NCBI GenBank assembly: GCA_003599145.1
Contig: QZIT01000005.1
Location: 320,330-384,329, forward strand
Length of the DNA stretch: 64,000 bases
Source: Candidatus Woesearchaeota archaeon
Lineage (GTDB): Archaea; Nanobdellota; Nanobdellia; Woesearchaeales; UBA9642
Direction of reading: 5' to 3'
Of the stretch, positions 6,397-56,930 are shown piece after piece. The translations under genes were made by a program, and so were the position numbers. The notes beneath the pieces were generated by a model that saw only the letters and a list, made by a program, of their open reading frames with translations, did no database searches and had not been told where the DNA came from. Positions within the stretch are counted from its first letter, which is position 1, and the number at the start of each line of letters is the position of its first letter.

Positions 6397-8709
6397 ATGC
6401 ACGGTTTCATTGTTTATCCAACCTATAGAATTATCGATAACAAAGCGTTTGTGTATCTATTTGGACGGTTGGAAAACGGTGAGAGCTTTCTTACCATTAA
6501 TGAATGCAAGCCGTATTTCTACATAAAAAAACTAGATTTGGAAAAAGCAAAAACGTTGGCGAAATTTGAAACAGAAGAAAATCATTTTAAGAATTTTGAA
6601 GGAGAAGAAGTAATCAAAATTATCCTGACAGTTACGTCTGACGTTCCCATAACAAGAGATTTGCTTCAAAGCAAAGACATACCGACCTATGAAGCAGACA
6701 TCAGGTTTATTTACAGGTTCATGATAGATAATGACATCAAGGGAAGCATGAAAATAACAGGAGACTACAAAAAAGGAGACTTTGTCGACAGAATCTATGA
6801 AAATCCAAAACTATCCGAAAGTGATTTTTTTCCTGAATTGAAAATGCTTGCCATCGATATTGAAACCGATGCAAAGCAAAAGGAAATTTACTGCATTTCT
6901 CTGTATACAAAAACGCATCAGGAAGTATTGATCCACAGCAATAAAAAATTGAACAACGCAACATCCTTTGCAACAGAAAAAGAATTATTAGAAACCTTCA
7001 TCAAAAAAATAAAAGAACTTGACCCTGATGTCATCACCGGATGGAACGTCATTCAGTTCGACATAAGAGTTTTAGAGGAAAAATGCAAAAAATACAATAT
7101 TCCCTTTGTTCTCGGCAGAACAAGAGAGACTGCAACGTTAAAAATTTTCAATGATTTTTTGAGAGAGTCAAAAGCAGATATTCCCGGAAGAATGGTCTTG
7201 GATGGCATTCACTTAATTAAGACATCATTCATGCAGTTAAAAGACTACACACTAGATAATGCGGCGTCAGAAATTCTCGGAGAGAAAAAATTAATAGGAA
7301 AAAAAGACAAGGGAAAAGAAATTGAAGATGCCTTTAGAAACAACCAGCAAAAACTGGTTGATTACAATTTAAAAGATTCAGAATTAGTCTATAATATCCT
7401 TGAAAAAACAGGAGTTGTCAAACTAACCATACAACGTTCCTTATTAACAGGACTGCAGTTAGATAAAGTCAATGCAAGCGTTGCAAGTCTAGATAATTTG
7501 TATCTGAGAGAAACGAGAAAAAGAAAAATTGTCTGCAACAACAGCCAGTTTTCTGAAAAAGAAAAACCCATCACAGGCGGTTTTGTCAGGGACAGCATGC
7601 CTGGCTTATATGAGCATATTGTCGTGCTTGATTTTAAAAGCCTGTATCCCAGCGTCATGAGAACATTCAATATTGACCCGTACAGTTTTGTTCATGAAAA
7701 ACCAAAACAGGTTGACAAAAAAAAGTTTGTTGTTGCTCCCAATGGCGCCGTATTCAAAAATGAAGAGGGCATTTTGCCGTCGTTAATTCAAGAACTATGG
7801 GCGCAAAGAGAAAAAGCAAGAAAGCAGAAAAATGAGCTTGCGCGATACGCCATAAAAATTCTGATGAACAGTTTTTTTGGAGTTCTTGCAAATCCATCGT
7901 GCAGGTTTTTCAGCATGGAAATCTCCAATGCAATAACCCATTGCTCACAGATGGTGATTAAATTAACTGCAGAAAAAATAAAAGAAAAAGGATATGTCGT
8001 TATTTATGGAGATACTGATTCTGTTTTTATAGATACAGAAGCAAAGAACGACAAAGAAGCAGAAAACATTGGAAAAGAATTGCAAGACTATATCAATAAT
8101 TTTTATCAGGACTATATCAAGAAAGAATACCATAGAGAAAGCTATTTAGAACTGCAATTGGATAAAGTATTTTTACATTTTCTCATGCCCAGAATACGGG
8201 GAAGTGAAGTCGGAGCAAAAAAAAGATACGCAGGATTGATTATGGAAAACGAAAAAGAAAAGCTTGTTTTTACAGGGCTAGAATCAAAACGCTCTGACTG
8301 GACAGCATTGAGCAAAAAATTTCAGGAAGAACTGTTATTAAAAATTTTCAAGAAAGAAAAATACGACGCATATATACGAACATTTATTGACGACTTGAAA
8401 AAAGGAAAATACGATGATTTGCTTATCTATAGAAAAAAAATAAACAAGCCATTGTCTGCCTATGTCAAAACAACTCCTCCGCATGTCAAGGCAGCAAGAA
8501 AATTAAAGGAAATACATTCTAACGTCATCATGTATATGATGACCACCGACGGACCTGAACCCATACAACAAATAAAGCATCAGATTGATTATGAGCATTA
8601 CCTGGACAAGCAGATAAAGCCAATAGCAGATGCCATTTTAACCTTTATCGATAAAAGCTTTGAAGATGTCATGAAGAACAGCAAGCAAACAAGCTTAAGC
8701 GGGTTTTAA
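6397..8709 (+). CDS. polB: DNA polymerase, family B (archaeal PolB), no inteins
   Basis: The N-terminus resembles archaeal PolB. Exonuclease motif regions are present (DIET..., YNLKDSELVY). Polymerase motifs A (DFKSLYPSVM), KKRYAGL and C (YGDTDSVF) are present. At 770 aa the protein is uninterrupted. Confidence 0.9.
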   Translation: MHGFIVYPTYRIIDNKAFVYLFGRLENGESFLTINECKPYFYIKKLDLEKAKTLAKFETEENHFKNFEGEEVIKIILTVTSDVPITRDLLQSKDIPTYEADIRFIYRFMIDNDIKGSMKITGDYKKGDFVDRIYENPKLSESDFFPELKMLAIDIETDAKQKEIYCISLYTKTHQEVLIHSNKKLNNATSFATEKELLETFIKKIKELDPDVITGWNVIQFDIRVLEEKCKKYNIPFVLGRTRETATLKIFNDFLRESKADIPGRMVLDGIHLIKTSFMQLKDYTLDNAASEILGEKKLIGKKDKGKEIEDAFRNNQQKLVDYNLKDSELVYNILEKTGVVKLTIQRSLLTGLQLDKVNASVASLDNLYLRETRKRKIVCNNSQFSEKEKPITGGFVRDSMPGLYEHIVVLDFKSLYPSVMRTFNIDPYSFVHEKPKQVDKKKFVVAPNGAVFKNEEGILPSLIQELWAQREKARKQKNELARYAIKILMNSFFGVLANPSCRFFSMEISNAITHCSQMVIKLTAEKIKEKGYVVIYGDTDSVFIDTEAKNDKEAENIGKELQDYINNFYQDYIKKEYHRESYLELQLDKVFLHFLMPRIRGSEVGAKKRYAGLIMENEKEKLVFTGLESKRSDWTALSKKFQEELLLKIFKKEKYDAYIRTFIDDLKKGKYDDLLIYRKKINKPLSAYVKTTPPHVKAARKLKEIHSNVIMYMMTTDGPEPIQQIKHQIDYEHYLDKQIKPIADAILTFIDKSFEDVMKNSKQTSLSGF

Positions 8710-11700
8710 GTTGCCTATATACTCGTGCACGGCATCAATCGCCTCAACAAGAGAAGGTTTTCTCGCTGCAGATTTCTGTAAAAACTGATAAAGATCCCGC
8801 AAGGTGCAGGTATTATCTTTTAAACTTAGAGGAGTGATGAATTTCTGTTGCAAGGCGCTCGTAAAAAAAACCATGTCAATGCCAAAAACATTTTGCACCA
8901 TTCTCTGGTCAACAACCGTATCTCCAACATCTCCCTGCAAAGCAGCAGCATATCCGTTGCCATCCTGTGCTTTTTTAATTATTTTTCCTGTGCCAGGCTT
9001 AGTGTCTGTTGCGGGAATGGCAAAGCTTTCATCAGGCACTTTAGAATAATCAGGAATTATTACTTTTTTTTCATGAGCAGGAAGAACCGTTGGATGCGCG
9101 AGTTTATATGCATTAACTGCAGTAGTGCAAGCCGTCGCCAACTGCTTCAGCGCTTTGTCTTTCATACCCGAAGCGTTGCCTGAAAATAAATAATCCAATG
9201 CAGCCTTGAGTGTAGTAGTTCCATCGTTTTCTACATACAAGCGTCCTGTTGCTTTTGCGCTTTGAATAACAGGCAAGGGAAGGTTGCTTAATGTGCTAAG
9301 CTCTTTCATCGATAAAACAGTATCCAAAGTATACGTCGGCTGTACCACGGGCGTTGGAGATTCTGGTGCAGATAAAACGGGTGTTGCAGCAAGTTGCTCC
9401 AACGTCTGTAATCTTTCACCTAGAACGCTTAGAATTTTTGGATTTGCATCAGAAACCTGTTGAGCATAAGCAAACAATGCAGGAGAATCTTTGCACAGGG
9501 AAGTTAAAAAATCCAGTTTTGTAGAAGTAGAAAAACCGTGAACAAGATAGCTAAGAAAATCGGAAAGGAGAACGCCGTCTTTATGGCGCGGCAATGCCTT
9601 TGCGATTAAAAGATTATCAATATATCTTCCTCGGTGACTGGCGATGTCTGCAAGGTCAGCAACGCGCATAACTGTTTCAGGAGTATAGAGAGAAGGTTTA
9701 ACAGCAACATCTGTTTTTTCTGTATCTAAAGCACGCGATGTATCTATTTCAATAGGGTCTTGTTCTTTCAAGAAATCATCAACTGACTGTACATTTCTCC
9801 GCAAAGTTGCCAATGCAGTCTCTTTTTTTTGTGTTTGCCTGCCTGAAGTTAAATAACCAAGGTAATCCTGTAAAGTAACGCTTTTATTACTTTCTTGGGA
9901 TTTTAAACGTCCACCTGCAACTGCCTGAGATAAAGCAGAATAGTTTGCTCCAGAAAGCCGAGAAATCTCAGCCAAGGATAAGGATGAATCTAACGTATAA
10001 ACTGGAGGGTTAGGGGGCGTTGCAGGGATATCTGCTGGAGGAACATCAGCAGGAGGTGTATCTATGGGAGTTGCAGGAACATCTGATGGAACAGCTAACG
10101 TGTTTTCATCTGAAACAACCGATGCACTTTTTGAAATAACATATGCCTCTGCACCTGCAACATTCTTTCTTATAACGGCTAGTGCTCTTTTTTTTGCTTG
10201 AAATTGAGGGCCTGTAAGGAGAGAATCAATATAATCGCTCATAAGCACTGCACTTCCTTGCGTTTTAAGAGTGCCCTGATTTATACGATGACTAACGGCA
10301 CTATCCGTAACCTGCACTAACTCAGCAAGCTCATGAACAGAAAGCAAAGAATCTAAGGTGTATTCTGTTTCAGCAAAACTAGAGGAGTGTGGCGTTTCAA
10401 CAGATGACTCTTCTGTCTCTACTGCAACTGTTTTTGTAACATATTCTTGAAATTGCGGAGCATTCTTGCAAATGGCATCAAGAAGTTGTTTTTTTAAAGA
10501 AGTTGCCCTTCCTCCTTTCAAATAATCCAAAACTTCTCTTACTGCTAAAGCACTGCCATCGCGAAAAGGCAAATCAGCGACGTGAGGTAAATTCTTAAAG
10601 TATTGCGCCTTGTATCCAGAAAGTTCTGCTAATTCAGTAGAAATAAGAACAGAGTCGAGCGTGTACGCTTTTGCTTTTGTTAACACATCAGTTCCTAATG
10701 GCGGTAAAGGAACTGTTTCTCCATCTGCTAAAAACGGAGTTATCAAATCAGGAACTATTCCTTTTAACGCAGCAATGGCATTTCTCTTTGACTCGCTTGT
10801 TCTTCCTGAAGTAAGATAGATTAAACCATCTTCAAGGGTTAGCAACATATCTCCCTCTTTTTTCTCCGTATTAAGGTTTCCCTTTCGAGCTGACTTGTAT
10901 AACGCATCAGAGCTTATTCCCGTTAAACTCGCAAATGCATCAATAGTAAATGCTGATTTCAACGTGTAGACTGGCTTATCTATCTGTTCTGCTGTCGTTT
11001 CTACAGTCGCTCCTTTGTCGAGAGCAGTTCCTGCAAGATGCGTTGCAACACAGGGAACATTGTTCATCAAATTATGCAAAGCATCTGCTTTAGACTTGGT
11101 GTTCATTCCTGAAGTTAAATAACCAATATAATCAGAAAGCTTTACCTCAGTATTCACATTTTTGCCTGTTCCTTCAAGACGATGAGTTGTTACTGCGGCT
11201 AGTATAGTTTCCCACGATACGTCTGCAAGTTTTGCAAGCGTTCTGACGTCAAGTACTGTATCCATCGCATATTTTGAAGGGTCTGGCAAAAGATACTCAT
11301 CTATATTTTGTGTTTTTCTAAACGTCTCAACGAGCTCAGGCATTTCTTTATGCAAGCATTCAAGGAAATCACTTTTATGCTGCGTTATTCTTCCTGTTGT
11401 CAAATAGGTTAAAAACTCAAAAAGCATGATTCCTTGGTTATGAAGAGTTAGCCTTCTCGCATGAATGACATTGTCAAAATACTTTGGCTCAACGCCGAGA
11501 AGGTCTGCTAAAGCAGTAACTTTCATATACTGTCTTAAATCATTTGGAATATCTGAATGAACAGTCGATAAAGAATGTTTCTCTCCTCTAAAAACGGCAT
11601 CAAGAACAACAGAGATTCCTTTTTCTTTCAATGCATCATCAAAAGGTTTTCCGTCTAAAAGTGAAACAGCATGAATCTTCTCAAACATGCCATCGGTATT

Positions 11701-12246
11701 TAAAAGCAAATAGGCTTCTGGAATGTCTGCAAATACAATCGCTTTTCTGTTTTTTCCAATAATTTTTTTGATAATGCCTTCAACGCCTTGTCTTAGCGTC
11801 GTATATTCTATTAAAAAGTCATCATTTTGATCCCAAACATTTCTCAGTGATTCATAAAAATATGCCTGTGCATGAACCTGCTGTTCTGAGAAAAATAACG
11901 AAGTAGTATTTTTCACTGCCGCAGTTGAGAGTCTAACCACGTCTTTTTCAGTGCTGAATGTTAAAATTCCAGAAACATCCTCCTCAGTACTTGCCGTAAA
12001 CCCATAATAATGGGGAACAACTATCTGCATAGGCTGTACTTTTTTTCGTTTATCTTCTTTTTTATCTCCTGATGCAACGATGCCCTGTGGCTGTAAAAAT
12101 CCTTGAAAGCTTCTTGCAAGTTCCTCTGCAAAGCTTAAATGCCTCTGCTCTTCAAAGGCTCTAAAAACATCTTGCTTTACTGTTGCTATGATTGCCTGCA
12201 AATTCATCGTTGCCGAGAACCAATGATTGTATTTAAACGTTTCCAT
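8695..12246 (-). CDS. giant cytoplasmic protein with ~9 tandem HTH-like repeat modules (novel architecture)
   Basis: There is no signal peptide. Repeats of ~75-90 aa open with '(V/Y)YTLDS.LS..ELA.LSG' and end with 'L.DYL.YLTSG'. The opening looks like an excisionase/MerR-type HTH. Example copies begin at protein positions ~405, 480, 560, 640, 730, 815 and 890. A Pro-rich linker 'PSDVPATPIDTPPADVPPADIPATPPNPP' interrupts the array. The 3' end overlaps polB by 15 nt (convergent). Confidence 0.6.
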   Translation of the reverse strand: METFKYNHWFSATMNLQAIIATVKQDVFRAFEEQRHLSFAEELARSFQGFLQPQGIVASGDKKEDKRKKVQPMQIVVPHYYGFTASTEEDVSGILTFSTEKDVVRLSTAAVKNTTSLFFSEQQVHAQAYFYESLRNVWDQNDDFLIEYTTLRQGVEGIIKKIIGKNRKAIVFADIPEAYLLLNTDGMFEKIHAVSLLDGKPFDDALKEKGISVVLDAVFRGEKHSLSTVHSDIPNDLRQYMKVTALADLLGVEPKYFDNVIHARRLTLHNQGIMLFEFLTYLTTGRITQHKSDFLECLHKEMPELVETFRKTQNIDEYLLPDPSKYAMDTVLDVRTLAKLADVSWETILAAVTTHRLEGTGKNVNTEVKLSDYIGYLTSGMNTKSKADALHNLMNNVPCVATHLAGTALDKGATVETTAEQIDKPVYTLKSAFTIDAFASLTGISSDALYKSARKGNLNTEKKEGDMLLTLEDGLIYLTSGRTSESKRNAIAALKGIVPDLITPFLADGETVPLPPLGTDVLTKAKAYTLDSVLISTELAELSGYKAQYFKNLPHVADLPFRDGSALAVREVLDYLKGGRATSLKKQLLDAICKNAPQFQEYVTKTVAVETEESSVETPHSSSFAETEYTLDSLLSVHELAELVQVTDSAVSHRINQGTLKTQGSAVLMSDYIDSLLTGPQFQAKKRALAVIRKNVAGAEAYVISKSASVVSDENTLAVPSDVPATPIDTPPADVPPADIPATPPNPPVYTLDSSLSLAEISRLSGANYSALSQAVAGGRLKSQESNKSVTLQDYLGYLTSGRQTQKKETALATLRRNVQSVDDFLKEQDPIEIDTSRALDTEKTDVAVKPSLYTPETVMRVADLADIASHRGRYIDNLLIAKALPRHKDGVLLSDFLSYLVHGFSTSTKLDFLTSLCKDSPALFAYAQQVSDANPKILSVLGERLQTLEQLAATPVLSAPESPTPVVQPTYTLDTVLSMKELSTLSNLPLPVIQSAKATGRLYVENDGTTTLKAALDYLFSGNASGMKDKALKQLATACTTAVNAYKLAHPTVLPAHEKKVIIPDYSKVPDESFAIPATDTKPGTGKIIKKAQDGNGYAAALQGDVGDTVVDQRMVQNVFGIDMVFFTSALQQKFITPLSLKDNTCTLRDLYQFLQKSAARKPSLVEAIDAVHEYIGNLKPA

Positions 12247-13913: not shown

Positions 13914-14050
13914 AGTACAAAGACTATACCGTTGCCATCTCCCCCATAACAGTATACTTATTGCTATATAAAAAGCTATCGGTTTTTATGCGTAATTGAG
14001 AGGGAACAAAAAAAGCAAAGTTTATAAAGAAAAATCATTATGAAACAGCC

Positions 14051-17000
14051 ATGGGTAGAGTGAAGAGGCATCATTTTTTACGAATAGGTCTAGTTGCTGT
14101 ATTTTTCATCATTCTCGGCTCTATGATTATCCATCTTGCAGACCAGCCAAGAGTAGGAAGGCCTATAGGATATGCTCCGACTTCCTTCAATTATTTCTTT
14201 CCGCTTACAGAAGGAACTGGCTTAACAATAACGGACACCACAACATCGCTGACAGGCTATTTGGAAACAAGCATCGAGCGAGACAGAACTCCTGATTGGA
14301 CCAAGATAAATCCAACAGAGTATGCATTGAATTTTTCTTATGACTCCAGCGGATTAGGAAGCGTCAGCAGATGGGTAAGAATTCCCTATCAATCAAATCT
14401 GGAGCCTCAAACATTCACGATAGAAGCGTGGGTGAGGCCAGAAGTCAACAACGGACAAGCACAGTACATCATTGTCAAGGATGGTACAAGCGCAACAGAC
14501 CAGAACACGGGTTATCGTTTATGGTATCAGCATCCAAATTACTGTTTTCAGGTAAAAAAAAGCTCAGCATGGTCTGCTGTCCAATGCAACTCAGGCTCAG
14601 GGCTAAATAACTGGGACCATGTTGCTGCAAGCTATCAGCAGTCATCAGGAACATTGGCAGTGTATGTTAACGGAAACAGCCTTTCATCAGTTACAGGCGC
14701 AGGAGCAATACAGTACAGCCAAGGAGATTTATTTATTGGCTCGCCAGGAAGAGAAACAAATCCTCAGTATAATTTTCAAGGCTTAATAGCCGATGTAGTC
14801 ATCACCAATTCAGTCAGCACATCATCAAATCCTTTTAACTTAAAGCCTAATATCGTAACAACAGGAAACTCTCCTTCAGGATTAACGCCTGATGCTATCT
14901 TTACCTGTGCATTTGATTCGAACATTCCTGGTTCTATCGAACTGCATACGGACAGAACAGGCAGCATGCAAAAAGAAAAAAGTTTCGATTATACTCAAGT
15001 TGATTATGCAAGTCTTCCTAATAACGGACAAGTGAGCTTTACGCTTACTAATCTTAATCAGGGAACGTATCAGTGGAACTGCATAGCCTATGATTTAAAT
15101 GGAAACTCCTATCAAGGCACACAAAAATCAGTTTCCATGCAGCTTGCAAGAGATTTAATAACCACTCCTAAAAATCCTGATGATAAAGAGATTTTTGAAA
15201 CAACGTTAAGTTCATTGCCAACAGCATTTCAATGCGAAGTAACTTCAACGCAGATAAAACAAGTTGAATTATGGCATAGCAATGGTGGTTGGAGCAGGAA
15301 AGGTCTGAACACCACGTTTCCTCCTGGAGTGATGTACAATATTGTTCCTACAATCAGTCAAAGCACCTATGCAAATTATCTATTGTCAGGATTTGAAGCA
15401 AATAAAGCAGCTGATGGAAATGATGCAACACTATGGGATTCAGGCACAAGAACCATATCCAATAATGGAATGATATGGGAGATAAATTTAACACAGCCCT
15501 ATACGATAAATAGATCGGTAATAAAGTGGTCTGGTCACAGCAGCTTTTCAGCAGGAAGTTGCGGTTCTAATACTGCTCAATTTATGTTCTTGAATGGTGT
15601 AAACACAAGATCTCAATTTGATGTAAATTACGCTGTAGGTGATATTATAACAGACGTTGCTGTAAATAAGCAAGGGATTAACCACATAGTAATTTTTCAG
15701 GGTACGGGGACGAGTTGCCAATTTAGAGGAACCATAAAAGAAGTTGAACTTTATTCCCAAGACTTCACTACAGGTGGAGAGGTAAACAATTGGTTAATTA
15801 ATTTTTCTTACAGCCAGCCTGAAGGAACACACACCTGGACCTGTAATGGTCTTACTATCAGCGATGCCAGACCTGTAATTACTGAAAACAGAACCGTTAT
15901 TGTTTCAAGAATACCCAGTGTCACGTTAGGAAATGTGTATGCAGGCGCTACGCTGATTAGTGGACCTTCGTATCAGACCTATCAGAGAAACCTGCGCTTC
16001 GAGTGCAGTGCAACAGGAAGCAATTTCTTAAGAAACATGACCTTGTATACAGATACAGGAGGAACATTCACGGCAAGAGAAAAGAAAACCTATAGTGGCG
16101 GCACTGCGTCTTTCACTCTTAGTGATTTAAATCCGGGAAGCTATCAATGGAATTGCTTGGCAGAAAATGCCTTTGGCACAACTGCATTTTCATCTGCAGA
16201 CAAAACAATAACTATTCTTCAGCCAACGATTGTTGCAAGATTTGACAATCCTGTTGATGGATTTACCACCACAGATAATAATGTAACATTGCAATGCAAC
16301 GGAACAGGCCATGCACAAAGCCCATTAGTAAACATGACGTTTTATGTGAAAAACACAACAGGCAATTGGACAGCAAATAAATTTCCTTATACGTCAGGAA
16401 GATTTTTATACAATCTCACAGGATTACAAACAGGAAGCTATGAATGGTATTGTGAAGTGCAAAACAGTTTTGGAGATAGTAATAGAACAGCAACCAATAG
16501 AACGTTTAACATTCAAACGCAACCGCAATACACTATTTGCCAAAATAATGCATGTGTTACCGTAAACGGCATCGGAACAAATCAGTGCAGTGCAGATGCA
16601 AATTGCCAGAGTTTATTCGGAGTTAACCTTATAAGCCCAACAGACGGATACACCAGCTACCTTGCCAATGCCAATTTTCAAATGAACTGCTCAGCAACAG
16701 GCAATACTAATGATTCTTTAAGTCTGTACACTAACCTGACAGGAACATGGCAAGAAACACAAACAAAACAATACACATCTGGAATTGCAACATTCAATCT
16801 AACATCTGTACCAGTTGGAGTTTATGTATGGAATTGCAGAGTAAATGACACGAACGGAAACTACAAATTCAATGAAACTAACAAAACATTCGCTGTACAA
16901 ACTCCCATGCATTTAGAATGCAGAAATAACGCGTGTGTTTCCGTCAACGGAGAAGGAACAAATCAATGCAACACAGATGCAAACTGTCAAAATATTATGG

Positions 17001-19777
17001 GAATAAATTTAATTGAACCTGCAAACGGCATAACCACAACCAATCAAAATGTACAATTGAATTGCAGTGCAACAGGAAACAACCTGCAATCTATAACCCT
17101 CTACACCAACGCATCAGGATGGACAGCAAAAGCAACCAATGCTTACACCGTACCAGGAACAAAAACAACCTTTGCACAAACATTAACGCCAGGAACCTAT
17201 GCATGGAATTGTCAAGTAAATGACAGCTTTAACAATAGCAAGTTCAATGAAACCAACAAAACAGTAACCATACAAACCGCAACGCATTTGGAATGCAGAA
17301 ATAACGCTTGCGTTTCTGTAGCAGGAATAGGAACAAATCAATGCAGTATTGATGCAAATTGCCAGAGTTTATTCGGAGTTAACCTTATAAGCCCTGCAAC
17401 AGGATACACCACGACAAATTCTTCTGTAGAAATAACCTGCAGCGCAACAGGAAACGATACCTTAAGCCTCTACACCAACAGAACAGGAACATGGCAAGAA
17501 ACATCAATCATAAAGCCATACACAGGAATACCCTATATCTTTATTCTTAGTTCTTTGACAGTTGGAAATTATGCGTGGAACTGCAGAGTAAATGATACTT
17601 CTGGAAATTTTAACTTTAACCAGACGAATAGAACATTCACTATTCAACAGGCTGCACAAACACACTTAATCTGCCAGAATAATGCTTGTGTTTCTATCAA
17701 TGGAGCAGGAACAAATGAATGTACAGTGAATGCAAATTGCACCAATTTATTCACCGTTAATCTCCTTGAACCTGCATCTGCCACCACGATTGCCCAGCAG
17801 AATACAACGCTCAACTGCAGCGCAACAGGAAACAACCTGCAAACCATGACATTATACACCAGCGCAGGAGGTTACGGGCCAAAAGCAACTGTTCCTTATA
17901 TAACATCAGGAAGCAAGGCAAGCTTCCCTCAAACGTTCACTTCCGGAAGTTATCAGTGGAATTGTCGAGTGCAAGATTTGAATAATAATACGCAATTTGC
18001 CTCTGCAAACAGAACAATAATCATCAACCTTACTCAGCCGCAATATGGAGTTTGCCAGAACAATGCGTGTGTTACCATGAATGGCAGCGGAACAGACCAG
18101 TGTTTAAGCAATCCTTCTGTTTGTGCAAGCTTTGTTCCTGTACAACTGATAAGCCCTGCGAATAATACGCAAACAGTGAATACCACCGTAATCTTGCAAT
18201 GCAACACAACGTCTGCAAACAGGCAAAACATCACGTTATATACTAATAGAACAGGAACATGGCAGAGAGAATTGACCTATGTGTTTACCGGAACAGAAAC
18301 GCCTTCATTTACGATTAATGCTGCAATTGGACGATATGCATGGAACTGCTTAGCTTATGACACTAATAGAAATTATGGATGGAGTGTGAATAGAACATTT
18401 GAAGTAATCAATAATCCTGTTCAGTTATTTATTAAGGACACGTCTGAAAATGAAACTATTTACACAAATACCAACATCACGTTTTATGCAAATTACACCA
18501 ACGGAACAACACCTATTACAGGAGCAGCATGCAACGTTAACGTGCTCTCAACAAATTATGCAATGGTGTATAGTGCAACACTAAGGCAATATGCGTATTC
18601 AAGAATTATCAATCAGCCAGGAGACCATGATTATAATATAACCTGTTCTTTGTCAGGCTATCCAACAAGGAGCGTTGTAAAGACAGCAACCATTATGACT
18701 ATCTGCGGAGATAGCTCTTGCAGCCAAGGCGAAACCTGCAGTTCTTGCTCTGCTGACTGCGGCCAGTGCAACGACGATAATGATGCTGGAGGAGGTGGCG
18801 GCGGTGGAGGAGGCGGTGCTGGAGCTCCAAAGATAAGAACGCTGGAATTAAACATCACCAATGCAGATATAGAAAAAATAGTCATTGTCTATAATGCATC
18901 AACCTTATTAAAAGTGAACGTTACTGAAAGGAATACTAATCCCTACAGTTCATTCGAAGGCATTGTCTATAAATATTTCAATATAACACCTAGCTTTACC
19001 AACGGCATCATCAATACAAGCATTTTCTTCAGAGTCAGAAACAGCTGGATAACCCAAAACAACATCAACGATGCAACGGTAAAAATGAAAAAGTACAATG
19101 CAAGCTGGATTACTTTGACAACACAAAAATTAAGTTCAGATAACAGCTATACGCATTACAAGGCAGTTACCAACAAATTCAGCATTTTTGCAATGTATGG
19201 ATTTGCAAACCAGAATGATACCGTAGCTCCCCCTCAAACACATTTAGCCTGTGTAGGCAATGCATGCATTTCAGTTTCAGGTTCTGGACAAAACCAATGC
19301 GCAACCAATGCAGATTGCGTTCCATTGCCACCACCTCAAAATGAAACACCAGGCCAAAATTTTACTGAACCTCCAGGAGAATCCTGGTTCATAGACAATA
19401 TTTTGTGGATCGTTATTGGATTTATTGTTTTAGCAGGTATTGGCATTGCGGGATTTTTCTTTATGAAGCCTCATGAAGAAGTTGACCCTGGAAAAATAGA
19501 ATCATTGCGGTCTTATGTTTACTCATGCAGAGCTCAGGGATACAGCAATGAGGAAATTGAAAAAAGATTAGTTAACAGCGGATGGGATAAAAAAACAGTA
19601 AAGCAGATTATTCCGAAAACATCAGTAAGCGAGAAATCAATCCCTGCAGAAAAACTGGAAGAAATCAGGGAGTTTATCAACACCAGCAAAAAACAGGGAT
19701 ACAATAAAAAACAAATTAAAGAAATGCTTTCAAGCCAAGGATGGGCAAAGAAAGATATTGATGATATTGTAAAGTGA
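14051..19777 (+). CDS. giant cell-surface protein: N-terminal signal anchor, LamG/concanavalin-like domain, ~5-8 tandem Ig-like modules separated by Cys-knot linkers, poly-Gly linker, C-terminal TM anchor and cytoplasmic tail
   Basis: The N-terminal hydrophobic segment is RIGLVAVFFIILGSMIIHLA. 'FTIEAWVRP...NWDHVAASY...LAVYVNGN' matches the LamG jelly-roll pattern. 'C.NNACV.VNG.GTN(Q/E)C..DANCQ' recurs at about nt 16536, 16915, 17293, 17670 and 18050, with a variant at 19245. Dozens of N-x-S/T sequons are present. Gly codons run at 18787-18830. The TM helix is WIVIGFIVLAGIGIAGFFF at ~19410-19470. The tail repeats the motif QGY(S/N)..(I/Q)(E/I)K.L...GW.KK.(V/I) twice. Confidence 0.8.
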   Translation: MGRVKRHHFLRIGLVAVFFIILGSMIIHLADQPRVGRPIGYAPTSFNYFFPLTEGTGLTITDTTTSLTGYLETSIERDRTPDWTKINPTEYALNFSYDSSGLGSVSRWVRIPYQSNLEPQTFTIEAWVRPEVNNGQAQYIIVKDGTSATDQNTGYRLWYQHPNYCFQVKKSSAWSAVQCNSGSGLNNWDHVAASYQQSSGTLAVYVNGNSLSSVTGAGAIQYSQGDLFIGSPGRETNPQYNFQGLIADVVITNSVSTSSNPFNLKPNIVTTGNSPSGLTPDAIFTCAFDSNIPGSIELHTDRTGSMQKEKSFDYTQVDYASLPNNGQVSFTLTNLNQGTYQWNCIAYDLNGNSYQGTQKSVSMQLARDLITTPKNPDDKEIFETTLSSLPTAFQCEVTSTQIKQVELWHSNGGWSRKGLNTTFPPGVMYNIVPTISQSTYANYLLSGFEANKAADGNDATLWDSGTRTISNNGMIWEINLTQPYTINRSVIKWSGHSSFSAGSCGSNTAQFMFLNGVNTRSQFDVNYAVGDIITDVAVNKQGINHIVIFQGTGTSCQFRGTIKEVELYSQDFTTGGEVNNWLINFSYSQPEGTHTWTCNGLTISDARPVITENRTVIVSRIPSVTLGNVYAGATLISGPSYQTYQRNLRFECSATGSNFLRNMTLYTDTGGTFTAREKKTYSGGTASFTLSDLNPGSYQWNCLAENAFGTTAFSSADKTITILQPTIVARFDNPVDGFTTTDNNVTLQCNGTGHAQSPLVNMTFYVKNTTGNWTANKFPYTSGRFLYNLTGLQTGSYEWYCEVQNSFGDSNRTATNRTFNIQTQPQYTICQNNACVTVNGIGTNQCSADANCQSLFGVNLISPTDGYTSYLANANFQMNCSATGNTNDSLSLYTNLTGTWQETQTKQYTSGIATFNLTSVPVGVYVWNCRVNDTNGNYKFNETNKTFAVQTPMHLECRNNACVSVNGEGTNQCNTDANCQNIMGINLIEPANGITTTNQNVQLNCSATGNNLQSITLYTNASGWTAKATNAYTVPGTKTTFAQTLTPGTYAWNCQVNDSFNNSKFNETNKTVTIQTATHLECRNNACVSVAGIGTNQCSIDANCQSLFGVNLISPATGYTTTNSSVEITCSATGNDTLSLYTNRTGTWQETSIIKPYTGIPYIFILSSLTVGNYAWNCRVNDTSGNFNFNQTNRTFTIQQAAQTHLICQNNACVSINGAGTNECTVNANCTNLFTVNLLEPASATTIAQQNTTLNCSATGNNLQTMTLYTSAGGYGPKATVPYITSGSKASFPQTFTSGSYQWNCRVQDLNNNTQFASANRTIIINLTQPQYGVCQNNACVTMNGSGTDQCLSNPSVCASFVPVQLISPANNTQTVNTTVILQCNTTSANRQNITLYTNRTGTWQRELTYVFTGTETPSFTINAAIGRYAWNCLAYDTNRNYGWSVNRTFEVINNPVQLFIKDTSENETIYTNTNITFYANYTNGTTPITGAACNVNVLSTNYAMVYSATLRQYAYSRIINQPGDHDYNITCSLSGYPTRSVVKTATIMTICGDSSCSQGETCSSCSADCGQCNDDNDAGGGGGGGGGGAGAPKIRTLELNITNADIEKIVIVYNASTLLKVNVTERNTNPYSSFEGIVYKYFNITPSFTNGIINTSIFFRVRNSWITQNNINDATVKMKKYNASWITLTTQKLSSDNSYTHYKAVTNKFSIFAMYGFANQNDTVAPPQTHLACVGNACISVSGSGQNQCATNADCVPLPPPQNETPGQNFTEPPGESWFIDNILWIVIGFIVLAGIGIAGFFFMKPHEEVDPGKIESLRSYVYSCRAQGYSNEEIEKRLVNSGWDKKTVKQIIPKTSVSEKSIPAEKLEEIREFINTSKKQGYNKKQIKEMLSSQGWAKKDIDDIVK
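16536..18430 (+). repeat. intragenic tandem repeat of ~378 nt (~126 aa), about five copies, inside the surface-protein gene
   Basis: The Cys-knot motif recurs every ~378-380 nt. A 44-nt segment gatgcaaattgccagagtttattcggagttaaccttataagccc is identical at ~16596-16639 and ~17351-17394. Confidence 0.7.
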
Positions 19778-25609: not shown

Positions 25610-27676
25610 ATGAGAATATTGTTCATTTGCATCTTTGTTGCTCTTTTTGCTACATCAGCATATGCCCTAGATTATTTTGATTATCAAACCCTCGACCTCA
25701 ACTTGAAAATTCAAAACACCATGGAGATTGAGGAAAAAGCAAGCAAATCATTTACTGATTATGTTCATGCCAATCTTTCTTATTTCCCTAGAAATGATTA
25801 TAGACAACAGGTAAAATCACTTACCACTATTCCTGCTGCAGAACAGGAAGAAACTATTAATTTTATCTGGAATAATCCCCCAAAAAGCATCATGTTTACT
25901 GTTGAAAGCAGCATTGCAACCAACGCAGAATTTAAACAGGTAAAGCAAAAAACAGCATTTCCTATAAATAATCTTGACGGAAATTTTGCCCCTTACTTAG
26001 AAGAAGGAGAAATTATCGATAGTGATCCTGACATAACCAATCTTGCTGCATCTTTGGCAGAGGGCAAAGATGACCTGTATAGTGTAGTTTTTGCTCTTGC
26101 AGACTGGACCAATACAAATATAGAATATAACTTAAGCACCAGCAATGTAGCAGCAAGCAAAAAAGCCAGCTGGGTTTTAAAAAACAGGCAGGGAGTTTGC
26201 GATGAACTAACCAGCTTGTTCATTTCCATGAACAGGGCTTTAGGAATACCTGCAAGGTTTGTCAGCGGTATTGCGTATACCAATGTTGCAAGCTTTGGAG
26301 AGCCTTGGGGAGCTCATGGATGGGCAGAAGTGTATTTTCCTAATGTAGGATGGGTTCCTTTTGATGTAACCTATGGTCAATATGGCTATGTCGATGCAGG
26401 CCATATCAAGTTAAGGGAAAGCCCTGAATCAGGCATATCATCTGTTAATTATGAATACCGCGGATACAATATTGATTTAGAAACAGGCAATCTTGATTTT
26501 CAAACAACCGTAGAAAAAACAGGAAACCCTATTGAAAAAGTGTTTGACATAGAGCTAAGCATGTACAAAAGCAGCGTCGGATTTGGCTCATACAATGTCG
26601 TTATTGCAGACATCCAGAACCTTAAAAATTACTATGTCGCTGAAGAAATATTTTTAGGCCAGACAACAAAACTCCAGCAGATTCATCCTGCAAAAAAAAA
26701 TATTCTGCTCAAACCCAATGAACGAAAAAAATTCTATTGGATTATCAAAGTGGATACTGATTTAGAGAACAGATTTACCTACACGTTTCCTGTCAAAGTC
26801 TATACTGACAGAAAAGAAGAAGCAACAACGAGCTTTACTTCAGCAAACGGCTTCGGCATGGTGCCTTATGAAGAAATTGCAAAATATCAGGAGACAGAAG
26901 TAAAGGAGCATGCAGTTTTTTCCTGTTCAGCCGACAGTACTGCAAAGCTGAATGAACCAGTTGAAATGCTCTGCACCTTTGATAAACAAAATAAGGTAGT
27001 AACGAGCATAGACATCTGTCTTGAAGGCTGCAAGCGTTATACGCTCATGCAAGAGGAAACAAGCATCACCTTCAACAAAACGTTTAACCAAACGGGATTG
27101 CAAACCATCACCATCAGCGCAAAAAACAACGAGTTTTCAAGAACAGCCTATGTTATTATTAATGTTGTTGATGAACCTTCTTTATCTGTTGAAGTTGATG
27201 TTCCTGAAAATGTTTCCTTTGATGATACGATAAATATGCTATTCAGCATCAGCAAGGATTCCTTTGCAAATCCTGAAAAGGTCAAAGTCAGCATCAAGCA
27301 CAGCATCATTCACTACAGTTGGAATTTTGATGTTCTTGATAAAAACCAGCAGATTACGTTTTCAACGCCTGCTAAAAACCTTGAAAGCGGTGAAAATAAG
27401 TTTATTTTAGATATTGTTTATGAAGATGATTTAGGAAATATCTATACAGAAAAAAAAGAATTTTCTATTACCCTTCAAGATACTCATTTTGGACAAAAGC
27501 TATACATCACAGGCAACAAAATAGGCTCAAAAATAGAACAGGCTATTATAAATCCAGAAGCACGCATGCAGTTTTTCAAAAGCCCAAAAACATGGATTGT
27601 TTTTATAGTGATTATTCTGATTTTAGTGAGTATTAAAATTATTGCAAAAATCCTTCTCAAAAAGAAAAGCATTTAA
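25610..27676 (+). CDS. transglutaminase-like (papain-fold Cys-His-Asp) domain protein, signal peptide and C-terminal TM anchor
   Basis: The core reads 'QGVCDELTSLFISMNRALGIPARFVSG...GAHGWAEVYFPNVGWVPFDVTYG', giving Cys, His and Asp. The C-terminus has the TM segment WIVFIVIILILVSIKIIA. Confidence 0.7.
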   Translation: MRILFICIFVALFATSAYALDYFDYQTLDLNLKIQNTMEIEEKASKSFTDYVHANLSYFPRNDYRQQVKSLTTIPAAEQEETINFIWNNPPKSIMFTVESSIATNAEFKQVKQKTAFPINNLDGNFAPYLEEGEIIDSDPDITNLAASLAEGKDDLYSVVFALADWTNTNIEYNLSTSNVAASKKASWVLKNRQGVCDELTSLFISMNRALGIPARFVSGIAYTNVASFGEPWGAHGWAEVYFPNVGWVPFDVTYGQYGYVDAGHIKLRESPESGISSVNYEYRGYNIDLETGNLDFQTTVEKTGNPIEKVFDIELSMYKSSVGFGSYNVVIADIQNLKNYYVAEEIFLGQTTKLQQIHPAKKNILLKPNERKKFYWIIKVDTDLENRFTYTFPVKVYTDRKEEATTSFTSANGFGMVPYEEIAKYQETEVKEHAVFSCSADSTAKLNEPVEMLCTFDKQNKVVTSIDICLEGCKRYTLMQEETSITFNKTFNQTGLQTITISAKNNEFSRTAYVIINVVDEPSLSVEVDVPENVSFDDTINMLFSISKDSFANPEKVKVSIKHSIIHYSWNFDVLDKNQQITFSTPAKNLESGENKFILDIVYEDDLGNIYTEKKEFSITLQDTHFGQKLYITGNKIGSKIEQAIINPEARMQFFKSPKTWIVFIVIILILVSIKIIAKILLKKKSI

Positions 27677-27710: not shown

Positions 27711-29522
27711 ATGAAAATAGTGCCTGATACCAGCGTCATCATTGAAGGAGTGCTGTCAAAAAGAATAGAGCATAAGGAGCTCAAATGCACTGAACTGCTT
27801 ATTCATGAAGCTGTTCTTGCAGAGCTTGAGCATCAGGCAAATAAAAACAGGGAAACAGGTTTTTTAGGGCTTGATGAGATTAAAAAGCTAAGGGAATTGA
27901 GCGAAAAGGGCAAATTTACCTTGACATTTGTTGGCAATCTTCCCAGCAGTGAAGCCATTGCAAATGCAAAAAGAGGCAATATTGACGCATTAATCAGAAA
28001 TCTTGCTTTTGAACAAAAGGCAATGTTAGTAACCGCTGATAAAGTTCAGGCATTGGTTGCAGAATCAAAAGCAATCACTGTTTTATTGATAGAAATAGAA
28101 TCTGTAGAAAAAGCACTGCAGATTGAAAAGTATTTTGACCTGCAAACCATGAGTATTCATTTGAAAGAAAACTGCACTCCAAAGGCAAAAAAAGGAAAAC
28201 CAGGAGACTGGGAGTTTGTTGAAGTTTTTCCTGATGCTATTGACAGGGAAACCATGAAAGCAATGGCAAAGGAGATTGTTGAAACAGCCAATATGCGCAA
28301 AGATGGCTTTGTTGAAATGGAAAGAAAAGGCTCAACTATTGTGCAATTGGGAAATTTCAGGATTGTCATTACTAAACCGCCTTTAGCAGATGGCTATGAA
28401 ATAACCGCAGTAAGGCCTGTAAAGAAGCTTTCCATGGAAGAATATGAAATAAGTGAAAAATTAAAAACAAGAATAGCAAAGCAGGCAGAAGGCGTTTTAA
28501 TCAGTGGAGCTCCCGGCATGGGAAAAAGCACATTTGTGCAGGCGTTGGCAGAATTCTATTATGAGCAAAATAAAATTATCAAAACAATAGAAGCTCCAAG
28601 AGATTTGGTTTTGCCAGAAGAAATAACGCAGTATGCCATAAGCCATGGCAGCAATGAAGAAATCCATGATATTTTGCTGTTAAGCAGGCCTGACTATACC
28701 TTATTTGATGAAATGAGGAATACCTCTGATTTTAAGCTCTTTAGCGATTTGCGATTAAGCGGAGTAGGCATGGTTGGTGTTGTGCATGCAACCAATCCTA
28801 TTGACGCCATACAGCGCTTTATAGGAAGAATTGAATTGGGGGTCATCCCTCACGTTATTGATACGGTTATTTTCATAAAAAACGGAGCCATAAACAGGGT
28901 TTTTTCTGTTGATTTAAAGGTTAAAGTTCCTGCTGGCATGACAGAAGCAGATCTTGCAAGGCCTGTTGTCACGGTAAATGATTTTGAAACAGGAAAATTA
29001 GAGTTTGAAATTTACAGTTATGGAGAAGAAACCGTCGTTGTTCCTGTTAAGCAGGAATTTCAGAATCCTCTAAAAAACCTTGCTGAGCAGCAGATTAAAC
29101 GAGAATTTACCTACTTCGATAGCCACGCAGAAGTAGAAATGCAGGGTGATCAAAAAGTTATTGTTTATGTAAGCGATGACAAAAAGGCAAGAGTTATTGG
29201 CAGGGATGGAGAAACCATCAAAGCCATTGAAAAAAAGCTTGGGCTAAATATTGATGTAAGAACTAGGGGAGAAAGAAACAAGGCTGAAAAAAACGACAGA
29301 ACAGAAAGCATAACGTATAGCACCAAAATAAACAAGAAAAATATCATTTTCATGCTGGACAGCAACACGGCTTTTAAAGATATTGACATCTCTGTTGATG
29401 GAGAATTTTTGATGACGGTAAAAGCAAGCAAAAAGGCCATGCTCAAAATCAATCAGGGCAATAAAATAGCAAAACTCATTCTGGCCGGTCTAGAGCAAGG
29501 CAGTGTTGAGCTGAAATATTAA
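27711..29522 (+). CDS. PIN-domain / PilT-like ATPase / KH-domain protein (COG1855-type)
   Basis: The N-terminus has a PIN-like segment 'MKIVPDTSVIIEG'. Walker A is 'ISGAPGMGKST'. The C-terminus has a KH-like segment 'VIGRDGETIKAIEKKLGLNIDV'. Confidence 0.75.
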   Translation: MKIVPDTSVIIEGVLSKRIEHKELKCTELLIHEAVLAELEHQANKNRETGFLGLDEIKKLRELSEKGKFTLTFVGNLPSSEAIANAKRGNIDALIRNLAFEQKAMLVTADKVQALVAESKAITVLLIEIESVEKALQIEKYFDLQTMSIHLKENCTPKAKKGKPGDWEFVEVFPDAIDRETMKAMAKEIVETANMRKDGFVEMERKGSTIVQLGNFRIVITKPPLADGYEITAVRPVKKLSMEEYEISEKLKTRIAKQAEGVLISGAPGMGKSTFVQALAEFYYEQNKIIKTIEAPRDLVLPEEITQYAISHGSNEEIHDILLLSRPDYTLFDEMRNTSDFKLFSDLRLSGVGMVGVVHATNPIDAIQRFIGRIELGVIPHVIDTVIFIKNGAINRVFSVDLKVKVPAGMTEADLARPVVTVNDFETGKLEFEIYSYGEETVVVPVKQEFQNPLKNLAEQQIKREFTYFDSHAEVEMQGDQKVIVYVSDDKKARVIGRDGETIKAIEKKLGLNIDVRTRGERNKAEKNDRTESITYSTKINKKNIIFMLDSNTAFKDIDISVDGEFLMTVKASKKAMLKINQGNKIAKLILAGLEQGSVELKY

Positions 29523-50435: not shown

Positions 50436-50466
50436 AAGAATAAATCGCCAAACTTGATTTATAAAG

Positions 50467-51444: not shown

Positions 51445-51475
51445 TCATTTAAATACCTCTTTCTTTCTTGATACT

Positions 51476-52654: not shown

Positions 52655-53290
52655 CTACTTTTCTAGTATTCCGCCCCATTCAATAACCGTAAATCCATTT
52701 CGTTCAGGAGTTATGATGTTTGGTTCTGGAATAGATATTTCTTCTTTAAGAGGTGTAAAGTAAAAATTCAATCGTATTTTTGTATCTGGTTTTGGGGATA
52801 TTATCAAATTCATATTTTCGTCTAAGAATTGCTCGTCTAATAATTTAATTTCGTAATACTTTGACGTTGGCAGTTCGTTCAGCCAATAATCTTTAAATTG
52901 GTTTTTTTCCTTTTCGTTCAATCCAAATTTGATCAAATACTCATCAAACCACGACTCTAAATCTGCATAGGCAACAACCCAACCTTCATTTGGCAAGTCT
53001 ATCTTATGCAGTTGAGCTTCATAAAACAAGTAATCATAGGTTTGTTCAATCATTCCGTCTTTCGTTACCCAAACTGTCCAACCGTTTTCGTATTCGGGAA
53101 TAGCGTTTATCAGTTCTCCATTAACGTTTACTTGAACAGTTATCAAAGAATCTTCTATAGGATAGAGATAAAGTGCTGGCTTTTTCACAATCATACGGCC
53201 TGCTTGATGCATTTCATAAGCGATAAAAGCTGCAAAAGCGATTCCTAGAACCACCAAACCGATAAGAATCCACAGCACAATCTTTTTCAT
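52655..53290 (-). CDS. N-terminally membrane-anchored hypothetical protein
   Basis: A TM segment 'IVLWILIGLVVLGIAFAAFIAY' is followed by a soluble domain. Confidence 0.4.
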   Translation of the reverse strand: MKKIVLWILIGLVVLGIAFAAFIAYEMHQAGRMIVKKPALYLYPIEDSLITVQVNVNGELINAIPEYENGWTVWVTKDGMIEQTYDYLFYEAQLHKIDLPNEGWVVAYADLESWFDEYLIKFGLNEKEKNQFKDYWLNELPTSKYYEIKLLDEQFLDENMNLIISPKPDTKIRLNFYFTPLKEEISIPEPNIITPERNGFTVIEWGGILEK

Positions 53291-53342
53291 AAATGTATTA
53301 GATTAAGCTTCTTTATTAATATATCGATGGCTGTAAAGAGAA

Positions 53343-54281: not shown

Positions 54282-54346
54282 AGCTCTATTGAAATAAAGT
54301 GATATATAAATCTTTGTTTAACTTGCTGAAGAGTAAAAAAAAGAAA

Positions 54347-56128: not shown

Positions 56129-56136
56129 TTTTCACC

Positions 56137-56840: not shown

Positions 56841-56930
56841 CTCTTTTTACCATTCATACCTTTTGGTATTTATATGGTTTGTGTTTTTTTCTCTTTTTTT
56901 ATGAACAGTTTTATGAATAACGGTGCATCC

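Follow-up and report, generated by a model that had tools for sequence, protein, structure and literature searches.

What does a gene of 1908 uninterrupted codons encode in the genome of a Woesearchaeota archaeon, and where in the cell would its product act? The gene in question lies in the window, that is, the whole stretch of 64,000 nucleotides (nt) of contig QZIT01000005.1 that was analysed here:

14051-19777, plus strand: uninterrupted open reading frame (ORF) of 1908 codons, encoding 1908 amino acids (aa), from the ORF reading of the window

Its product is identical (100% identity and coverage) to the NCBI entry 'PGF-pre-PGF domain-containing protein [Candidatus Woesearchaeota archaeon]', the source contig of which measures 576430 bp. 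The answer that we favour, and consider reasonably probable, is a single-pass type I surface glycoprotein of this archaeon, most likely an adhesin. A role in host attachment is suggested by its domain types only.

First, the protein possesses just two hydrophobic segments, one at each end (aa 7-33 and 1777-1807), which were assigned as follows:

14051-14149, plus strand: N-terminal Sec-type signal or signal anchor, with a basic n-region (MGRVKRHHFLR) and a hydrophobic core (aa 12-29), ending in IHLA/DQ (Kyte-Doolittle hydropathy and charge)
19379-19471, plus strand: C-terminal transmembrane (TM) helix, aa 1777-1807 (Kyte-Doolittle peak 2.62)

In the N-terminal segment, the 19-residue Kyte-Doolittle peak reaches 2.56, the n-region carries a net charge of +4 and the core comprises 18 residues. 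A class III (pilin-type) signal was rejected, as direct reading revealed no [KR]-G/A cleavage motif ahead of the hydrophobic core.

The sequence between these two segments bears an extracellular signature. It contributes most of the N-x-S/T sequons of the protein, 62 in number compared with 40.4 ± 5.4 in composition-preserving shuffles, 1 of 5000 of which reached 62. The sequon density is 5.1 per 100 aa in the five repeated units described below, 0.4 in aa 1-261 (a single sequon, LamG domain included) and 1.0 in the tail that follows the TM helix, and it ranges from 0.24 to 1.14 in nine other ORFs of the window. The stalk of immunoglobulin-like (Ig-like) domains holds the greater part of these sequons, 61 of which are extracellular. 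A preliminary description of this DNA had noted the enrichment, which is real, and had placed a sequon every 10-15 residues; the spacing is wider, averaging 31 aa over the whole protein and 20 aa within the units. Furthermore, 54 cysteines precede the TM helix and only one follows it. As their number is even in each module, up to 27 disulfides are suggested for the ectodomain, for which both glycosylation and disulfide bonding are thus far predicted from the sequence.

Elsewhere in the window, the product of 50467-51444 (plus strand) is a membrane protein with two hydrophobic segments followed by a DsbA-like/Thioredoxin_4 domain with a CYTC active-site motif. It is a candidate extracytoplasmic disulfide oxidoreductase, relevant to an ectodomain of 54 cysteines.

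Downstream of the signal, the N-terminal part of the ectodomain comprises a lectin-type domain and four Ig-like domains, the second of which is interrupted:

14366-14821, plus strand: LamG_3/concanavalin A-like lectin domain, aa 106-257 (PF13385)
14834-15166, plus strand: Ig-like domain 1, aa 262-372, with Cys286 and Cys344 (unit hidden Markov model (HMM), independent E-value (iE) 7e-9; G.Y.W.C motif)
15167-15925, plus strand: Ig-like domain 2, aa 373-625, apparently interrupted by an insert of ~154 aa (Ig HMM after excision)
15341-15802, plus strand: nested insert, aa 431-584, resembling F5/8 type C domains (discoidin, NedA-like galactose-binding; PF22633, marginal)
15926-16525, plus strand: Ig-like domains 3 and 4, aa 626-729 and 730-825 (unit HMM iE 1.9e-18 and 3.5e-14)

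The lectin-type domain belongs to PF13385 (LamG_3, Laminin_G_3), with an E-value of 2e-20 and 73.9 bits against a cut-off of 27.6, over profile positions 4-146 of 151; it would form the membrane-distal head, provided that the signal is cleaved. Each of the four Ig-like domains (aa 262-825) shows a Cys pair and a G-x-[YH]-x-W-x-C motif. When aa 431-584 were excised in silico from Ig-like domain 2, an Ig profile built from the other Ig copies of the same protein gave one continuous match of 25.4 bits, whereas the intact domain gave a split match of 11.9 and 3.7 bits. In addition, Cys395 and Cys598 of this domain bracket Cys504 and Cys556 of the insert. Since excision restores the Ig match and the cysteines nest accordingly, a discoidin-like domain appears to be nested within Ig-like domain 2. 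The family of the insert is less clear: PF22633 scored 28.5 bits against a gathering threshold of 27.8 when aa 373-625 were scanned alone and only 23.0 bits in the whole protein, its alignment spans only profile positions 1-51 of 91, and PF00754 scored 23.9 against 28.2 bits.

The central part of the ectodomain consists of five tandem units:

16526-18418, plus strand: composite units U1-U5, aa 826-952, 953-1077, 1078-1203, 1204-1330 and 1331-1456 (unit HMM iE 1e-54 to 1e-59)

Each unit is composed of a mini-module with four cysteines (4-Cys module, C-x4-C-x10-C-x5/6-C) followed by an Ig-like domain with two, over 125-127 aa in all; the unit motif starts at nt 16538, 16919, 17294, 17672 and 18053, with a spacing of 375-381 nt. 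This agrees with the five repeats of ~126 aa and ~378 nt initially described. The motif then proposed for them, C.NNACV.VNG.GTN(Q/E)C..(D/N)ANC(Q/T), is correct in its core, C.NNACV..G.GT..C being present in all five, but unit 5 lacks the (D/N)ANC end and unit 3 reads VAG instead of VNG. Calling these repeats tandem at the DNA level was an overstatement. The units are 46-69% identical in nucleotides and 35-64% in amino acids, U5 being the outlier, and only four of the five copies are detected at the DNA level (64-82% over 118 nt). Tandem Repeats Finder reported no array in the repeat region, only the run of Gly codons described below; an array resembling a variable number tandem repeat, with head-to-tail copies at least ~70% identical and detectable by this program, is not what the units form. 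They are old duplicates. The most similar pairs, U1 with U3 and U2 with U4, hint at a past two-unit duplication.

One stretch is shared exactly by two of these units:

16595-16638, plus strand: first copy of a 44-nt exact repeat, in U1, encoding DANCQSLFGVNLISP (exact match)
17351-17394, plus strand: second copy, in U3, 756 nt (252 codons) downstream of the first (exact match)

The block had been recognized beforehand, with the right coordinates for the second copy and with the first placed one nucleotide too far downstream, at 16596-16639. Its presence raises the question, posed along with copy-number variation in the preliminary description, of a contingency locus, in which the number of units changes by recombination between them and stalk-length variants arise in the population. 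The length of the block is far beyond chance for units of 69% identity: none of 20000 permutations of the U1-U3 mismatches that preserved codon position reached 44 nt, the maximum being 32. Recombination at this place would remove exactly 756 nt, in frame, and the pairing of U1 with U3 and of U2 with U4 suggests that two units were once duplicated together. However, the next-longest exact runs between units measure only 8-21 nt, the units are otherwise as divergent as stated above with no detectable array, and no variant allele or close relative for a comparison of copy number was found in any collection searched. As regards synonymous sites, 53 of the 77 codons for the same residue (69%) are identical between U1 and U3, and the block represents a run of 16 identical codons; with an estimate of ~0.05, such a run, the peptide being identical, is only marginally unusual. 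A contingency locus is, in our opinion, very unlikely, and the block is possibly a small conversion tract. The 'ongoing intragenic recombination' of the preliminary description is too strong a term for one 44-nt block in otherwise 69%-identical units with a marginal synonymous-site test. A target of a diversity-generating retroelement was rejected: the repeat mismatches are spread over all base pairs and do not favour adenines, and a scan of 47 ORFs of the window revealed no reverse transcriptase.

At the fold level, the Ig part of the unit is an immunoglobulin-like beta-sandwich in the predicted model. AlphaFold2 modelling of U1 from a five-row alignment gave a predicted local distance difference test score (pLDDT) of 79, with 81-88 for the Ig part and 52-74 for the 4-Cys part. 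Foldseek comparison of this model with the PDB yielded 162 matches at E<=1e-3; the best were V domains of T-cell receptors (TCR) and antibodies (E 5.5e-5, TM-score 0.55-0.61), the top match being to Ig V domains with a TM-score of 0.57. The invariant Cys pair of the Ig part is separated by 49 residues. The unit profile also matched the sequences of antibody and TCR V domains weakly (E 0.004). Among curated Ig families, none reached its cut-off (Ig_3, 16.7 against 30 bits; Big_13, 13-19 against 27; Y_Y_Y, 13 against 26.6; Ig_2), and a scan of unit 1 against NCBIfam gave no match.

The same module is widely distributed. A profile of the five units searched against 1.84 billion representative sequences matched 2618 proteins at E<=1e-3, of which 588 reached E<=1e-10. 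Lengths of 2000-7700 aa are frequent in this set, and many of the proteins combine an N-terminal signal with a C-terminal TM segment. Among the best 150 of these 2618, the Ig part only was found in 136 (median of 4 copies) and 4-Cys arrays only in 11, the window protein alone having the repeated composite unit. In species-representative metagenome-assembled genomes (MAGs), the Ig part occurs under the labels Woesearchaeota, Undinarchaeales, Nanoarchaeia, Micrarchaeota, Aenigmatarchaeota and Methanosarcinales and, with one MAG each, under Paceibacterota and as an unclassified 'bacterium'; identity amounts to 41-44% for the best match. The named genomes with the module are mostly those of DPANN archaea (Diapherotrites, Parvarchaeota, Aenigmarchaeota, Nanoarchaeota and Nanohaloarchaeota), with a few of bacteria from the candidate phyla radiation (CPR) and a few MAGs labelled Methanosarcinales. 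L001, the closest relative from Woesearchaeota, carries the Ig module and lacks a LamG head; heads are therefore swapped onto a common stalk module.

The 4-Cys module has a distribution of its own. An HMM started from the six copies of the window protein (U1-U5 and a degenerate sixth one, see below) and iterated over the proteins already retrieved detected 183 copies in 20 proteins, with the consensus H.eC.n.aCv.v.G.G.n.C..d.dC over roughly 26 residues. The module is present also in Paceibacterota and Saccharibacteria. A Peribacteria MAG (L019, MFXW01000080.1) encodes a protein with 30 tandem copies and 10.2% Cys, and a Micrarchaeota MAG (L018, CAZPDD010000040.1) one with 22 tandem copies and 8.0% Cys; both have very few sequons. 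Bacteria and archaea thus have this extracellular repeat in common. No Pfam or NCBIfam model covers these arrays, the nearest, DUF7107, reaching only an E-value of 0.019. The name 'Cys-knot' given to the repeats at the outset is a misnomer: a cystine knot has six Cys in three disulfides, and it was rejected for a module of four Cys in the pattern C-x4-C-x10-C-x5/6-C. Large cysteine-rich extracellular proteins with a proposed attachment role have been described in Peribacteria (Anantharaman et al. 2016, PMC4736985), and the 4-Cys module is probably their repeat.

Between the last unit and the TM helix, several further elements were recognized:

18419-18697, plus strand: further beta-rich domain, of another type, aa 1457-1549, with Cys1494 and Cys1532 (phmmer)
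18704-18769, plus strand: six-Cys motif CGDSSCSQGETCSSCSADCGQC, of CGDG-x-C...DC type (direct reading)
18785-18826, plus strand: Gly-rich flexible linker A-G10-AGA, with the Gly10 run at aa 1580-1589 (direct reading, Tandem Repeats Finder)
18926-19198, plus strand: PGF-pre-PGF domain, aa 1626-1716 (TIGR04213)
19241-19318, plus strand: sixth, degenerate 4-Cys module THLACVGNACISVSGSGQNQCATNADC (HMM iE 3.2e-7)
19319-19378, plus strand: Pro-rich spacer (direct reading)

The beta-rich domain was not matched by the unit HMM; phmmer detected it in seven other giant proteins of the representative set (E 5e-15 to 3e-8). Two extra degenerate copies of the unit had been announced near 18700 and 19245. 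The second one exists as the sixth 4-Cys module (nt 19250, iE 3e-7). The first, at nt 18704, was rejected, as it has a different Cys pattern and no unit-HMM match; it is the CGDSSCSQGETCSSCSADCGQC motif, a type that also precedes the TM segment in P0041, P0047, P0066 and L051. Assignment of aa 1626-1716 to TIGR04213 is firm: the match scores 73.3 bits (cut-off 28; E 2e-20) and extends over positions 56-152 of a profile of 153. NCBIfam gave no other match at E<=1.

A PGF-pre-PGF domain is typical of archaeal proteins of surface-layer (S-layer) type. It introduces a second reading of the gene, namely an S-layer protein or a SlaB-like anchoring stalk, in which the Ig repeats would make up the cell wall or set its spacing, with the TM helix as anchor. 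Moreover, S-layer and SlaB-like proteins of Nanobdella were nominated by their Ig-like folds, their numerous sites for N-glycosylation and a TM helix at the C-terminus (bioRxiv 10.1101/2023.10.27.564410), to all of which the window protein has a counterpart in its sequence. However, two lectin-type domains in the head are not what such a wall component calls for, and relatives that keep the stalk while swapping the head, as L001 does, point in the same direction. The architecture as a whole is also unique among the matches listed from 5.8 billion sequences, which would be expected of a rapidly evolving interaction protein more than of a core component of the wall. An S-layer role is thus unlikely when compared with the adhesin that we favour.

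The part of the protein that follows the TM helix is a tail of 101 residues, which contains two repeats of 35 residues:

19508-19612, plus strand: tail module 1, aa 1820-1854, RSYVYSCRAQGYSNEEIEKRLVNSGWDKKTVKQII (tail HMM iE 1e-17)
19667-19771, plus strand: tail module 2, aa 1873-1907, REFINTSKKQGYNKKQIKEMLSSQGWAKKDIDDIV (tail HMM iE 1.2e-18)

These repeats match each other and the tails of other proteins from the representative search. AlphaFold2 modelling of the module from a nine-row alignment predicted a three-helix bundle with a pLDDT of 91.5. Foldseek comparison of this model with the PDB gave nothing significant (best E 3.5). Searches of Pfam, NCBIfam and PDB sequences with the tail revealed only sub-threshold resemblances to UBA, helix-turn-helix (HTH)-like and RecX three-helix units; the best Pfam scores were 14-23.5 bits against cut-offs of 22-27 and were inconsistent between members, and RecX reached 17.7 bits against cut-offs of 146-216. 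No Pfam or NCBIfam family was thus found for the module at cut-off. A match of the tail profile to IcmE/DotG was judged spurious, as it covers 13 residues of a repetitive protein.

Metagenome contigs were then scanned for the tail with a degenerate DNA pattern for G-Y-S-x-[DE]-[DE]-I-x3-L-x3-G-W, which biases the sample to one variant of the motif. Of 64 loci, 38 had ORFs matching the tail HMM, and iteration brought the collection to 71 modules in 63 proteins, from sediment and groundwater metagenomes. The module lies at the extreme C-terminus past the last TM segment in 24 of these proteins and at the N-terminus before the first one in 16; 19 have no detected TM segment, some being possibly truncated ORFs on short contigs, and 4 are arranged otherwise. 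In the 40 proteins of the first two groups, the sequence across the membrane from the module contains 3.19 sequons per 100 aa and 2.37% Cys. Because of this placement next to the TM segment, with sequon- and Cys-rich sequence on the opposite side, the module was taken as a juxtamembrane cytoplasmic domain used in both orientations, type II as well as type I by sequence. The C-terminal layout of the window protein recurs in L051 (CGDG...CGQC motif, TM segment, tail module) and in L053 (poly-Gly run, TM segment, tail module).

Some members of this collection deserve description in their own right. L053 and L035 (metagenome contigs Ga0208375_1005352 and Ga0209210_1011511, from different samples) encode one and the same surface protein of ~1321 aa, to judge from an L035 fragment that looks identical by eye. 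Its sequons are extremely dense, and its sequence includes a run of Gly, a segment resembling a coiled coil, a TM helix and a single tail module. L039, L036, L042 and L072 form a family of ~365-378 aa with the module at the extreme N-terminus, one TM segment and an ectodomain of ~280 aa; the one member scanned against Pfam (L039) gave no match. L052 has two N-terminal modules.

A conserved and confidently folded tail module, always juxtamembrane, in one to three copies and in proteins of both orientations, is what would be expected of a transmembrane receptor, in which sensing by the ectodomain is relayed by the tail through recruitment of a partner or through release by intramembrane proteolysis. 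The weak resemblance to UBA, HTH and RecX units would agree with this, and a Peptidase_M50 (site-2 protease) homologue is encoded in the window (43900-45492, minus strand), a link that is speculative. Yet the tail matches no signalling or DNA-binding family at cut-off nor any PDB structure significantly, the M50 gene is 24 kb away and of a kind common in genomes, and passive anchoring, clustering or membrane insertion would explain the same data. The receptor is therefore, to us, an improbable alternative to an adhesin. A broader proposal, which we put forward tentatively and hold to be doubtful as a whole, is that the tail repeats (consensus yi......GYs.eeIk..L...GW....i..) are an uncatalogued, widespread juxtamembrane three-helix domain of type I and type II single-pass surface proteins, which would couple them to one shared partner inside the cell and in this way serve positioning, clustering or outside-in signalling, and that the 4-Cys repeat is a second uncatalogued module, a stalk-building block common to CPR bacteria and DPANN archaea. 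If the coupling by the tail were true, ultra-small episymbionts would follow the logic of adhesion receptors.

Taken together, these results give the favoured surface adhesin the following form. The protein would be exported via Sec through its N-terminal signal and retained in the membrane by its C-terminal helix, with the tail inside. The ectodomain, of ~1740 residues, would be rod-like, with a stalk of about ten Ig-like domains, five of them preceded by a 4-Cys module; at ~4 nm per Ig domain, the stalk would measure roughly 40-50 nm. Disulfides would stiffen it and N-glycans would shield it. The LamG_3 and discoidin-like domains, held at or near its membrane-distal end, would recognize a glycan or a glycoprotein of another cell or of a surface, the Gly10 hinge would give freedom of orientation and the PGF-pre-PGF domain would be membrane-proximal. 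Just below the membrane, the two three-helix modules would probably bind an intracellular partner. In this picture, the ORF, the domain matches, the repeats, the hydrophobic segments, the patterns of sequons and cysteines and the wide distribution of the modules are observed, and we infer topology, glycosylation, disulfides, rod shape, binding of glycan or host and the role of the tail. The layout drawn in the preliminary description is largely recovered: the ORF with the same coordinates, strand and size, the N-terminal signal anchor (hydrophobic aa 7-33), the LamG-like domain, the poly-Gly hinge, the C-terminal TM anchor and the tail motif in two copies. Its assignment to the surface or envelope of a DPANN archaeon also holds, considering the Woesearchaeota label at NCBI, the order of signal, lectin, Ig stalk, TM helix and tail, the enrichment in sequons and the occurrence of the Ig module in thousands of large proteins.

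Several points weigh against such an adhesin. LamG and discoidin folds occur in non-adhesive proteins too, the discoidin match is itself marginal (28.5 against 27.8 bits) and the 4-Cys part of the U1 model is of low confidence. No ortholog is available for comparison: in a word-index search of whole proteins, the matches listed comprised the query protein and one LamG relative, and the nearest full-length relative listed is 34% identical over 8% of the query; no close relative was found in Joint Genome Institute (JGI) metagenome contigs or in viral contigs. Finally, the putative cleavage site IHLA/DQ is non-canonical, with His at -3. If the N-terminus stayed uncleaved, both ends might lie in the membrane, with LamG near the surface of its own cell and not at the tip; signal cleavage is the chief uncertainty in the geometry of the protein.

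As regards expression, one element was found upstream of the gene:

14021-14028, plus strand: TTTATAAA, a TATA-box-like element 30 nt 5' of the ATG, with an A-rich stretch before it (direct reading)

This element may serve as an archaeal promoter, the mRNA of which would be leaderless or have a short leader. The gene is flanked by a divergent ORF of 90 aa and a convergent ORF of 276 aa, neither of which has a Pfam match. Near it, on the minus strand, an ORF of 1183 aa (8695-12246) contains several degenerate repeats of ~95-120 aa, which end in a DY[IL]GYLTSGR...K-like motif (five strict matches, at aa 277, 372, 671, 794 and 896) and often begin with YTLDS.LS..ELA.L. Pfam gave no match for this ORF at E<=1e-3, its sequons are very few (0.34 per 100 aa), and no hydrophobic segment was noticed in it by eye.

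Other genes of the window are given here for completeness. A transglutaminase-core protein of 688 aa (25610-27676, plus strand) lies ahead of a protein combining PIN, type II/IV secretion ATPase and KH domains (27711-29522, plus strand). A FIST-domain protein (34629-35936) is encoded upstream of an unusual fusion (37450-38895, plus strand), in which the C-terminal domain of a 3-oxoacyl-ACP (acyl carrier protein) synthase III is joined to the receiver domain of a response regulator, and a GHKL histidine-kinase-type ATPase protein (38890-40353, minus strand) is convergent with this fusion. The region 47617-59386 holds a cluster for sugar/glycogen-type metabolism, with amylo-alpha-1,6-glucosidase-like, nucleotidyl transferase, Gal-1-P uridylyltransferase-like, GH57 and GT4/GT5 glycosyltransferase proteins and a eukaryote-type glycogen synthase (PF05693, 486 bits).

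For DPANN archaea and CPR bacteria, a life in attachment to other cells is assumed, and the molecules of contact are almost entirely uncharacterised. The window protein is a clean and complete example of their modular surface proteins, from the head to a folded tail. Once defined, the 4-Cys and tail families would improve the annotation of a large share of 'hypothetical' giant proteins, and the binding partner of the tail would offer a handle on how cells organise or sense surface contacts.

Among known systems, the closest in layout are the LamG and Ig surface proteins of DPANN archaea. In Ca. Nanohalococcus, host recognition has been proposed for the LamG proteins SVXNc_0801, 0806, 0807, 0813 and 0831 (PMC10266531). 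The proteins reported from Nanobdella aerobiophila have 4-7 Ig-like folds and 14-49 sites for N-glycosylation, and their TM helix is C-terminal (bioRxiv 10.1101/2023.10.27.564410). As described there, these proteins share with ours a signal peptide, a concanavalin A-like/LamG domain, multiple Ig-like folds, dense sequons, a single C-terminal TM segment and a DPANN genome. There is, however, no sequence orthology with the window protein, which adds, relative to the descriptions consulted, a nested discoidin-like domain, the alternation of 4-Cys and Ig parts, a PGF-pre-PGF domain and a 101-aa tail with two modules.

The giant SPEARE surface proteins of Nanohaloarchaeota, of 8880-9409 aa (Hamm et al. 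2019; PMC10266531), are likewise described with a membrane anchor, tandem Ig-like or fibronectin-like domains and a proposed host contact. They are defined by a length above 8000 aa, by an ATPase domain resembling VirB4/TraG and by a secretion ATPase encoded next to them (PMC10266531). The window protein is about five times shorter, with no VirB4/TraG-like ATPase or coiled-coil tip domain among its Pfam matches, and a scan of flanking ORFs revealed no gene for a secretion ATPase. A SPEARE homologue was rejected on account of the 1908 aa and the missing ATPase domain.

With the cysteine-rich proteins of Peribacteria, for which attachment has been proposed (PMC4736985), the window protein has the 4-Cys module in common (30 copies in L019). 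CPR bacteria and Micrarchaeota possess pure 4-Cys arrays of 4-30 copies, whereas here single copies alternate with Ig domains. The membrane-proximal PGF-pre-PGF domain recalls the PGF-pre-PGF and PGF-CTERM proteins (TIGR04213, TIGR04126). PGF-CTERM proteins are substrates of archaeosortase A and end in a PGF motif, a TM segment and a short basic tail. In contrast, the window protein ends in a folded tail of 101 residues, not in a few basic ones, and has no PGF-CTERM signal; processing by archaeosortase is therefore not expected, and a substrate of TIGR04126 type was rejected, as this model gave no match and 101 residues lie beyond the TM helix.

The likeness to eukaryotic adhesion receptors of the Ig superfamily is one of functional analogy only. 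Both have a lectin/Ig ectodomain, a single TM segment and a short folded tail, and the Ig parts share a Cys pair of B-F type, the Y-x-W-x-C motif and matches to the V-set Ig fold. There is no evidence of common descent, the Pfam Ig_3 match stays below its cut-off (16.7 against 30 bits) and the tail of the window protein carries no known signalling motif. Compared with all these systems, the distinctive traits of the window protein are its composite 4-Cys and Ig unit, its nested discoidin-like domain and two widespread building blocks with no curated family. In other respects, it is of an ordinary kind for such organisms, a modular, lectin-headed, Ig-repeat surface protein of a DPANN archaeon, deposited under a generic name.

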